From an uncultured Alphaproteobacteria bacterium (GTDB lineage: Bacteria; Pseudomonadota; Alphaproteobacteria; Rhizobiales; Hyphomicrobiaceae), in contig CAWHZB010000001.1 of NCBI GenBank assembly GCA_963833715.1, positions 1,185-65,184 of the forward strand: 64,000 nucleotides of DNA, in the 5' to 3' direction. Every line of letters starts with the position of its first letter. Position 1 is the stretch's first letter. This document shows positions 4,823-5,908 of this stretch, piece by piece. The position numbers were made by a program, and so were the translations under genes. Under the pieces are notes generated by a model that was not told where the DNA came from, did not search any database, and worked only from the letters and a program-made list of their open reading frames with translations.

Positions 4823-4909
4823 GCGGACGTGGTGGAACCGGTAGACACACAGGACTTAAAATCCTGAGAGGGTGACCTCGTGAGGGTTCGAGTCCCTCCG
4901 TCCGCACCA
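4823..4909 (+). tRNA. tRNA-Leu(TAA)
   Basis: Acceptor stem GCGGACG/CGTCCGC, D-loop GGTAGAC, anticodon stem CAGGA/TCCTG with loop CTTAAAA, long variable arm, GGTTCGAGTCC T-arm and encoded CCA. Confidence 0.97.
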
Positions 4910-5224: not shown

Positions 5225-5452
5225 TCATAGCCGCGCCTCCGAGGGACCATTCTGCGTGCGACGGCGATTTTTGCGGCTCGCCGCGTGGGCGATGGCAGCC
5301 CGCTCCGCCAGAAGGGCGTTCGCAAAACGACGGCCCTCGAGTGCATTGTATTCATCAAGCGCTGCATGAAAGCGATAGTCGCGCTCGCCGTCTTCGCGGA
5401 TGATCACGCCGGCCTGGTCGTCGCCGACTTCAATGACGTAGGATTTGGACAT
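5225..5452 (-). CDS. Conserved small hypothetical protein (75 aa)
   Basis: YVIEVGDDQAGVIIRE...YRFHAA...ALEGRRF...AERAA resembles a small-protein family I recall from rhizobia. ATG start. Confidence 0.75.
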   Translation of the reverse strand: MSKSYVIEVGDDQAGVIIREDGERDYRFHAALDEYNALEGRRFANALLAERAAIAHAASRKNRRRTQNGPSEARL

Positions 5453-5541
5453 GGTTTTTCGTTTTGCCGGTCGAAACCGGCATCCTCTCGTGAATGAATT
5501 GTGCTTTGGTTGTTGTGCGGCTCATGCCGCTCGGCTGCGCC

Positions 5542-5634
5542 TCAACGACAACAGGCGAACAGCATCCGGGTTCCCGGAAGCATGCCGGGCATCAATTCTT
5601 TTTCAGGATAGGGAAAAGCTTTAACTTTGCTCAT
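5542..5634 (-). CDS. 30-aa small ORF / putative leader peptide MSKVKAFPYPEKELMPGMLPGTRMLFACCR
   Basis: AAGGAGA Shine-Dalgarno 5 nt before the ATG at 5634; TGA at 5542-5544. Lies ~90 nt upstream of the 75-aa gene on the same strand. Below the ORF-track length cutoff. Confidence 0.6.
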   Translation of the reverse strand: MSKVKAFPYPEKELMPGMLPGTRMLFACCR

Positions 5635-5908
5635 AGCGGTCTCCTTGAACCGGAGCCCACGCTTGACGTGGACCTTAGCGTTTTTTGACGCGGCGCAAGA
5701 CATCTCAAAATCACCGCGGTCGGCGCGGTCACGCGACGACGCCCCGATAGTCCGTTACGTAGGAGGTCCTGGTCAAATAACAAGTTCGGCAAAGCATTGC
5801 TGAATTCCAGATAAAACGGCCGCACGCGCGGTTGGCAGTTTGGCGATTTTCTGTTTAGAAGCAGTTCTCATCACATGGCTGGGTCAAGCCCGGGGACTTT
5901 TTGCAAAC

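Follow-up and report, generated by a model that had tools for sequence, protein, structure and literature searches.

What controls the gene for a 75-amino acid protein of no assigned function, and why is that gene preceded by a short open reading frame (sORF) ending in two cysteine codons? The question is raised by a locus in a 64,000-nucleotide stretch of DNA, referred to here as the window, from an uncultured alphaproteobacterium of the family Hyphomicrobiaceae (assembly GCA_963833715.1, contig CAWHZB010000001.1, positions 1,185 to 65,184). The gene is found at positions 5452–5225 of the window and the 30-codon sORF at 5634–5542; both, like all other leader and operon features described below, are on the minus strand. 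An initial annotation, made from the letters of the window, had proposed that the sORF is a cysteine-sensing leader linking the small protein to sulfur status or, alternatively, that the two form a pair of microproteins. Our analysis indicates that the region 5727–5453 is probably a composite cis-regulatory leader in which two sensors are arranged in series, controlling the 75-amino acid protein together with a coupled 58-amino acid reading frame. The first of these would be a variant riboswitch aptamer of the S-adenosylmethionine-II (SAM-II) class upstream of the sORF, and the second the cysteine-ending sORF itself. The comparisons were made in 24 Hyphomicrobium genomes, in 35 Hyphomicrobium loci, 34 of them reaching upstream of the gene, and in an order-wide sample of 401 genomes from 149 genera of Hyphomicrobiales.

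A scan against all Rfam families gave a match to SAM_alpha (SAM-II, RF00521) at 5727–5657 with 22.5 bits, compared with a gathering score of 36. It was the sole relevant sub-threshold hit, and its end is located 22 nucleotides 5′ of the sORF start. The P1 helix comprises about 6 base pairs between 5718–5713 (CGCGGU) and 5694–5689 (GCCGCG) and is closed by a U·G pair. The other parts of the aptamer are an L1 loop of sequence GAUUUU (5712–5707), a CUUGC strand (5699–5695), an A-rich L3 (5688–5681), and a CGCUAAG tail (5680–5674) containing the unpaired U5677, with a P3 hairpin formed by CCACG and CGUGG at 5671–5657. R1, a covariance model that was built here from the variant aptamer, scores 68.7 bits at 5721–5671 and misses the canonical SAM-II copy present in the window's own genome. 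In the SAM-II pocket, the ligand is inserted between U and G of CUU/GC and is paired to the U left unpaired in GC-U-AA, and a triplex is built by the L1 uridines (PMC3303485). None of these SAM-contacting nucleotides (L1 GAUUU, CUU/GC, and the U of GCUAA that stays unpaired; PMC3303485) varies among 45 aligned copies, and the unpaired U of the variant's tail corresponds to U44 in PDB ID 2QWY. P1 is paired in 98.8% of cells, with its U·G pair becoming G-C in one locus (L017), and the outer P2b pair changes from C-G to G-C in another (L104), which is compensatory. P3 covaries, with double changes at three pairs.

The canonical SAM-II copy of the same genome scores 79 bits and is positioned 5′ of a metZ-like gene, where it is accompanied by an intrinsic terminator and no sORF (locus L001, G000:C19:184320-184398). 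The window's genome thus carries two SAM-II designs. An association with methionine or SAM genes, as expected of SAM-II, is seen for the variant across several families, and the target in the window itself is the protein without assigned function. Judged from its sequence, the element is best filed as a variant of the SAM-II class that would bind SAM, and not as a plain member, because the binding core is present but P2a and the Rfam score both fall short, as detailed below.

Directly 3′ of P3 is a hairpin pairing CUCC with GGAG that is conserved among the loci (helix 4, 96% of cells paired). This putative expression platform (5656–5640) is made up of an anti-Shine-Dalgarno (anti-SD) sequence, GCUCC (5656–5652), a loop, and the Shine-Dalgarno (SD) sequence AAGGAGA of the sORF (5646–5640), to which the anti-SD pairs. 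The platform was evaluated in a simple thermodynamic model in which the bound state was imitated by excluding the aptamer and tail from pairing. For the window, the model gave an unpaired SD fraction of 0.61 with the aptamer free versus 0.04 with it blocked, and the mean values over the loci were 0.18 and 0.03, respectively. This modelled change fits an OFF switch. The tail nucleotides after AAG are able to extend P3 into the anti-SD as an alternative pairing. In one clade (L038, L040) the anti-SD, the SD side, and the tail side are all altered together, and in a few lineages only (L058, L060) the SD is situated directly in the aptamer tail, as in classical SAM-II.

The sORF starts with an ATG at 5634–5632, separated from the SD by a 5-nucleotide gap (ccgct), and encodes MSKVKAFPYPEKELMPGMLPGTRMLFACCR. 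Its 3′ end consists of TGT (5553–5551), TGT (5550–5548), CGT (5547–5545), and the stop codon TGA (5544–5542), with no other cysteine codons in the frame and with internal methionine codons at residues 15, 18, and 24. The reading frame, its SD, and its terminal cysteine codons are therefore present as the initial annotation claimed, and the test it had set, namely recurrence of such an sORF upstream of homologues of the 75-amino acid protein, gave a positive outcome within the genus and beyond it. Orthologues of the protein were found in 13 of the 24 Hyphomicrobium genomes. The aptamer-like motif is almost invariant and present in 31 of the 34 loci, and an SD-led sORF of 19–38 codons comes after it in 30 of the 31 that were scanned. 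The start context GGAGAC-N5-AUG is kept in these sORF-bearing loci. The encoded peptides cannot be aligned across Hyphomicrobium sub-clades and have cysteine clusters as their C termini, for example MMMGRMCMPGCC, MSCCCGC, RMRSCCCCC, and MSCCCCCC. A crude scan of the window's genome for other cysteine leaders found that 33 of 4801 SD-led sORFs end in two cysteines, none of which was convincing.

The codon content of 30 distinct sORFs was compared with that of the long open reading frames of the window, keeping in mind that the sORFs are phylogenetically non-independent. Cysteine accounts for 16.7% of sORF codons versus 1.0% of the background, a 17-fold enrichment, and methionine for 7.7% versus 2.2%, a 3.5-fold enrichment. 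The last eight codons hold 83% of all sORF cysteine codons. The rare cysteine codon TGT is favored, making up 56% of cysteine codons in the sORFs and 19% in the background (Fisher p = 1e-8, calculated on related sequences). In 41 of 43 distinct sORFs the longest TGY stretch (at least two codons) shares the frame of the SD-proximal start, compared with an expectation of one third, indicating that the cysteine tract has been selected as codons and not as RNA alone. In close pairs, the nucleotide identity of the sORF equals that of the non-coding spacer, and its amino acid identity ranges from 0.38 to 0.83 where the nucleotide identity is 0.55–0.90 (for example, 0.48 at the amino acid and 0.74 at the nucleotide level). 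The reverse pattern is observed for the 75-amino acid gene. As the amino acid identity is far below the nucleotide identity, the sORF peptide drifts neutrally apart from its cysteine and methionine content. In a clade comprising L047, L050, and L051 the sORF (MKIRCSQRSPNHSGRRQSF) has no cysteine tail and the aptamer has decayed in two members, forming a natural loss series. A motif, YUGUCGA(C)GCUGA, recurs at the ends of unrelated sORFs in several families (L062–L064, L075, L103, L040, L067). It encodes cysteine (UGU) followed by the rare arginine codon CGA and a stop, and contains the palindrome GUCGAC. The UGU-CGA codon pair at sORF ends fits slow decoding; a role of the motif at the RNA level is another possible reading.

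The sORF stop codon and the start of the 75-amino acid gene are separated by a C/A-rich, G-poor spacer of 89 nucleotides (5541–5453). The initial annotation had described two hairpins and an ACAACA hexamer in this spacer, and all three are there: hairpin 1, GCGGC-ATGA-GCCGC, as a local fold at 5530–5517, the hexamer at 5516–5511, and a GC hairpin, TGCCGG-TTTCGA-CCGGCA, at 5482–5465. Its further observations, that there is no U-rich terminator and that the 75-amino acid gene has no close SD, are likewise seen in the sequence; the terminator scan detected neither an intrinsic terminator nor a U-run between the sORF and the gene, and the ATG is preceded by an A-rich stretch only. Conservation distinguishes the two hairpins. 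The gene-proximal GC hairpin (GCyGGC-N4-6-GCCGGC), whose end is approximately 12 nucleotides before the start codon, is the sole structure conserved genus-wide according to RNAalifold, and a purine box AGAGGA (5488–5483 in the window) is found 5′ of it in most loci. Hairpin 1 is retained in the nearest relative only, and the ACAACA hexamer is already altered in that relative (L019). A conserved attenuator built from hairpin 1 and a pairing of ACAACA with the UGUUGU of the cysteine codons, to which the initial annotation had pointed, was therefore rejected, as these elements are lost in relatives, RNAalifold gives no such structure, and pairing between the cysteine tract and the spacer is barely above the expectation from base composition (duplex z −0.48). 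The 60 nucleotides centered on the sORF stop fold slightly better than shuffled sequences (mean z −0.80, over sequences that are not independent). The length of the spacer is 64–99 nucleotides in 30 of the 31 sORF-bearing Hyphomicrobium loci, and its C/G ratio over 30 spacers is 1.9 (1.91). C-rich, G-poor RNA past a leader stop codon with no terminator corresponds in composition to tna-like Rho-dependent control, which suggests Rho dependence at this locus.

In the order-wide sample, R1 matches were obtained in 60 of the 401 genomes and 24 of the 149 genera. Among the 30 best R1 loci, 29 have a homologue of the 75-amino acid protein just downstream, and the remaining one is at a contig end. 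In total, 52 of 66 R1 matches are 93–463 nucleotides upstream of a gene of the family, and 52 of the 110 family genes have the aptamer. Most of these loci also have an sORF, such as MIVVSGMDIEKPDGKMCCGCCCC, MASVVNSTIALAPQSCRPMSSSCCMCC, or MTDAIPSKPALMLQHRGCCRL, and the sORF length across the order is 7–52 amino acids. In two families the aptamer and a tiny cysteine sORF of 7–12 amino acids (MTTSLKRPPCRR, MTCIEHC, VTSPTCMRD) are placed directly before metN- or metQ-like genes with no 75-amino acid gene. A metN-metI-metQ operon begins with the 75-amino acid gene in four loci, which belong to two families. Two genera of the family to which the window belongs have the 75-amino acid gene upstream of sbp, the gene for a sulfate-binding protein, and in one of these contexts a divergent cysB-family regulator adjoins. 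Some aptamer-less members of the 75-amino acid family still have an sORF ending in cysteines, with the C termini AATGACC and TGACCCC (L132, L137, family f41). These two sORFs are behind a common promoter-like box, CCATTTCATTGAC, and on sequence their leader looks like a riboswitch-free version. In a further genus, a match to the mmgR/suhB family of small RNAs (L059, 1852–1926; 46 bits versus a threshold of 41) adjoins the cassette.

Taken together, these features suggest a leader that would operate in two steps, the first two layers of which are proposed on sequence and comparative evidence. As the first sensor, the SAM-bound pseudoknot would hold the CGCUAAG tail. At high SAM, the anti-SD GCUCC would pair with the SD and the sORF would stay untranslated, and the naked C-rich leader would be open to Rho, or would bring no ribosomes, leaving the operon off. 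At low SAM the sORF would be translated. With charged Cys- and Met-tRNAs, the ribosome would terminate at the end of the sORF and leave. The methionine codons and the terminal rare cysteine codons would constitute the second sensor, stalling the ribosome near the stop when Met- or Cys-tRNA is poorly charged, and this ribosome, with a footprint extending across the stop codon into the first spacer nucleotides, would allow downstream expression. Most likely, Rho loading would be blocked by the stalled ribosome, which would cover or remodel the first part of the C-rich, G-poor spacer; alternatively, the stall could let ribosomes reach the distant start codon. Either Rho-dependent termination or translational coupling is thus a possible output of the stall to the gene. 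The operon would be ON when low SAM occurs together with cysteine or methionine starvation. That SAM is bound, that the ribosome stalls, which way the response runs, and that Rho takes part are inferences, the last three by analogy with mycobacterial polycysteine sORFs and with tna-type control. The proposal that a cysteine-codon leader links the small protein to sulfur status has in this way gained from the conserved sORF and cysteine codons, the neutral drift of the peptide, and the TGT bias, but it had missed the upstream riboswitch and the third reading frame of the operon.

Several observations speak against the two-sensor leader and should be set beside the evidence for it. P1 and P2b are practically invariant, and covariation is unable to confirm either helix; a proof by covariation was dropped, as the pairs are without variation. 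P2a is unsupported, with native loop-tail duplexes at −5.04 kcal/mol versus −4.83 kcal/mol for mismatched ones (p = 0.87), compared with about −12 versus −6.6 in the same test on canonical SAM-II copies. Several complementarities found by hand as candidates for this helix failed the native-versus-mismatched comparison. All variant copies tested are under the RF00521 gathering score (21–30 bits versus 36). The modelled SD switch is modest, the SD being largely paired in either state, and the idea of a clean thermodynamic switch was dropped, with an effect in the expected direction but of limited size. RNAalifold and the duplex test gave no conserved alternative structure joining the cysteine codons to the downstream ribosome-binding site or to a terminator. 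The window's own sORF, with two cysteine codons only, is a weak example, the sORFs of some lineages have a single cysteine left, and one Hyphomicrobium clade has no cysteine tail while the aptamer is kept (L047). Finally, the regulated 75-amino acid protein has no known sulfur function.

Other explanations of the same features were also weighed. The sORF might encode a functional cysteine- and methionine-rich micropeptide, either metal- or thiol-binding or a partner of the 75-amino acid protein, that is co-expressed under the riboswitch and whose cysteine run serves peptide chemistry. The link between the sORF and the 75-amino acid family persists without the aptamer, the cysteine cluster is always C-terminal, and the SD is strong, all of which would suit such a peptide. 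However, both its sequence and its length drift freely, from 19–38 amino acids in the genus to 7–52 in the order, the rare codon TGT is favored, and a sulfur-rich peptide made only at low SAM would be physiologically odd. The cassette with sORFs of 7–12 amino acids that heads metN or metQ without a 75-amino acid gene also counts against a micropeptide, and it likewise argues against the pair of microproteins considered in the initial annotation. A micropeptide function is accordingly regarded as unlikely.

If instead the riboswitch were the only sensor, the sORF would be a device for loading ribosomes or shielding the RNA from Rho, and its cysteine and methionine richness a by-product of nucleotide constraints such as the UGUCGAC and UGUUG motifs. 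There is a precedent in the SAM-II SD of Sinorhizobium meliloti metA, which drives translation 74 nucleotides downstream (PMC9373788), and the recurrence of UGUCGA(C)GCUGA at sORF ends in unrelated lineages, as well as the complementary base composition of the sORF tail and the spacer, would be accounted for. The in-frame TGY runs in 41 of 43 sORFs and the additional enrichment of methionine codons are not readily reconciled with nucleotide constraints, cysteine-ending sORFs exist where there is no riboswitch, and the pairing of the sORF tail with the spacer hardly exceeds what composition predicts, so that a riboswitch acting by itself appears rather improbable. A further possibility, an ordinary 5′ untranslated region (UTR) in which both the sORF and the weak SAM-II match arose by chance, would be compatible with the sub-threshold Rfam score and with the fact that short reading frames ending in two cysteines are not rare in the genome (33 of 4801). 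A chance origin is nevertheless scarcely credible, because the cysteine-rich sORF recurs in 30 of 31 loci, TGY runs are in frame in 41 of 43 distinct sORFs, and the order of aptamer, sORF, and gene is conserved across Hyphomicrobiales, which already contradicts it.

The 75-amino acid protein has an N-terminal YVIEVGD sequence, LEGRxF and AERAA motifs, and a basic tail. It matches no Pfam or NCBIfam family, is named "hypothetical" in source records, and belongs to a family with 803 cluster representatives (50% identity clusters). The AlphaFold2 model (pLDDT 86.5) comprises three strands and two helices, one short and one long, the long one with the basic tail. Comparison with the PDB gave no significant match by fold (Foldseek) or by sequence profile, the best being YkuJ (TM 0.5, E 2.7). 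The third small reading frame of the operon encodes 58 amino acids (5228–5052), and its ATG overlaps the stop codon of the 75-amino acid gene (ATGA). Roughly two-thirds of the examined Hyphomicrobium loci have a frame of 56–65 amino acids at this offset of −4, with its C terminus, (L)AP(V/I)GPSx(D/E)F, alone conserved; the sequence suggests a short linear motif carried by a disordered protein. The conserved 3′ UTR (5040–4958) contains a hairpin, CCUGCUCG...CGAGCAGG, followed by an intrinsic terminator found in the terminator scan (GACCGG...CCGGUC and U7, 4991–4958). It is near-identical to that of the nearest relative (L019), shows a weak Rfam match to anti-hemB (24 bits), and may give rise to a 3′-UTR-derived small RNA. 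Upstream of the aptamer, approximately 50 nucleotides from P1, there is a conserved box, CTTGTTATTTGACC (5784–5771), with the variant TTCTTGTTATTTGAC at equal distance in most Hyphomicrobium loci and, in several relatives, a CTTTGA-like hexamer 17 nucleotides 3′ of it. A sigma-70 consensus scan gave nothing at 5784–5771, and the box is probably the −35 region of a non-consensus promoter or else a regulator site. The neighbors in the window are a divergent FAA-hydrolase gene and a convergent tRNA-Leu(UAA) at 4823–4909, beyond which no conserved gene neighbors were found in the window.

Extending the proposal for the window to the order, it is possible, at a confidence somewhat short of even, that a SAM-II sub-class without P2a, missed by Rfam, gates a cysteine- and methionine-codon leader frame across Hyphomicrobiales as a two-input gate responding to low SAM and poorly charged Cys- and Met-tRNAs. 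The gate would define a sulfur and methionine starvation regulon with the family of approximately 70-amino acid proteins (more than 800 clusters) as its main member. In a literature search, no published case of a cysteine-codon leader gated by a SAM riboswitch came up. If true, the locus would be a compact case of a metabolite-binding pseudoknot and a ribosome-stalling mini-frame wired in series on one leader, a variant overlooked by current models would be added to the SAM-II class, and metNIQ methionine uptake would join the riboswitch-controlled genes of Hyphomicrobiales. It would also give a first functional handle on a widespread unannotated small-protein family, in the form of a predicted induction on sulfur amino acid starvation.

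In the trp, his, and tna systems of E. coli, a translated leader contains regulatory codons at a fixed position relative to a downstream RNA signal, and in the tna operon stalling of the ribosome at the leader stop codon hides a neighboring Rho loading site. The leader described here differs from classical attenuation and from tnaC in having no terminator/antiterminator pair and an extra metabolite-binding RNA in series, and its likeness to tnaC-type control lies in a Rho dependence suggested by the composition of the spacer. As in the polycysteine sORF attenuators of mycobacteria (Canestrari et al., bioRxiv 10.1101/834739), a short frame with cysteine codons precedes the regulated genes and the sequence of the peptide is unimportant; for the mycobacterial sORFs, ribosome pausing at scarce cysteine has been proposed as the means of sensing (10.1101/834739). 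In contrast to these sORFs, which are of the leaderless class and belong to another phylum, the sORF in Hyphomicrobiales is SD-led, is located at least ~80 nucleotides downstream within an aptamer leader by which it would be gated, and is enriched in methionine codons too. No conserved duplex between the cysteine tract and the ribosome-binding site was found for it, and the gene in the window is not one known from cysteine metabolism.

The aptamer shares with SAM-II (Rfam RF00521, SAM_alpha; Corbino et al. 2005, PMC1273637; structure summary PMC3303485) the layout of an H-type pseudoknot with P1 closed by a U·G pair, identical triplex elements (L1 GAUUU, CUUGC, and CGCUAA(A)G), its occurrence in Alphaproteobacteria, and the link to methionine genes; OFF control through the SD, as in SAM-II, is proposed for the variant. 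It departs from SAM-II in scoring 21–30 bits, in an L3 that is 2 nucleotides shorter, in one missing nucleotide between CUUGC and P1, and in having no detectable P2a, with a separate P3 hairpin following. The SD of the variant is ~30 nucleotides further downstream in an anti-SD hairpin of its own, and the first target is a leader sORF in place of a biosynthetic gene. The published Rhizobiales SAM_alpha regulon consists of metY, metA, metX(W), hom, and metC (PMC4239095), whereas the targets of the variant are the small protein and metNIQ, both absent from that regulon. The nearest experimental parallel from the same order is the "translation at a distance" of the S. meliloti metA SAM-II, where the SD is 74 nucleotides from the start codon (Scheuer et al. 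2022, PMC9373788), compared with ~180 nucleotides from the final start codon here. S. meliloti metA has a single frame containing two AUGs, together with an intrinsic terminator, whereas in the present leader a separate, terminated, cysteine-rich sORF is followed by a terminator-free spacer.

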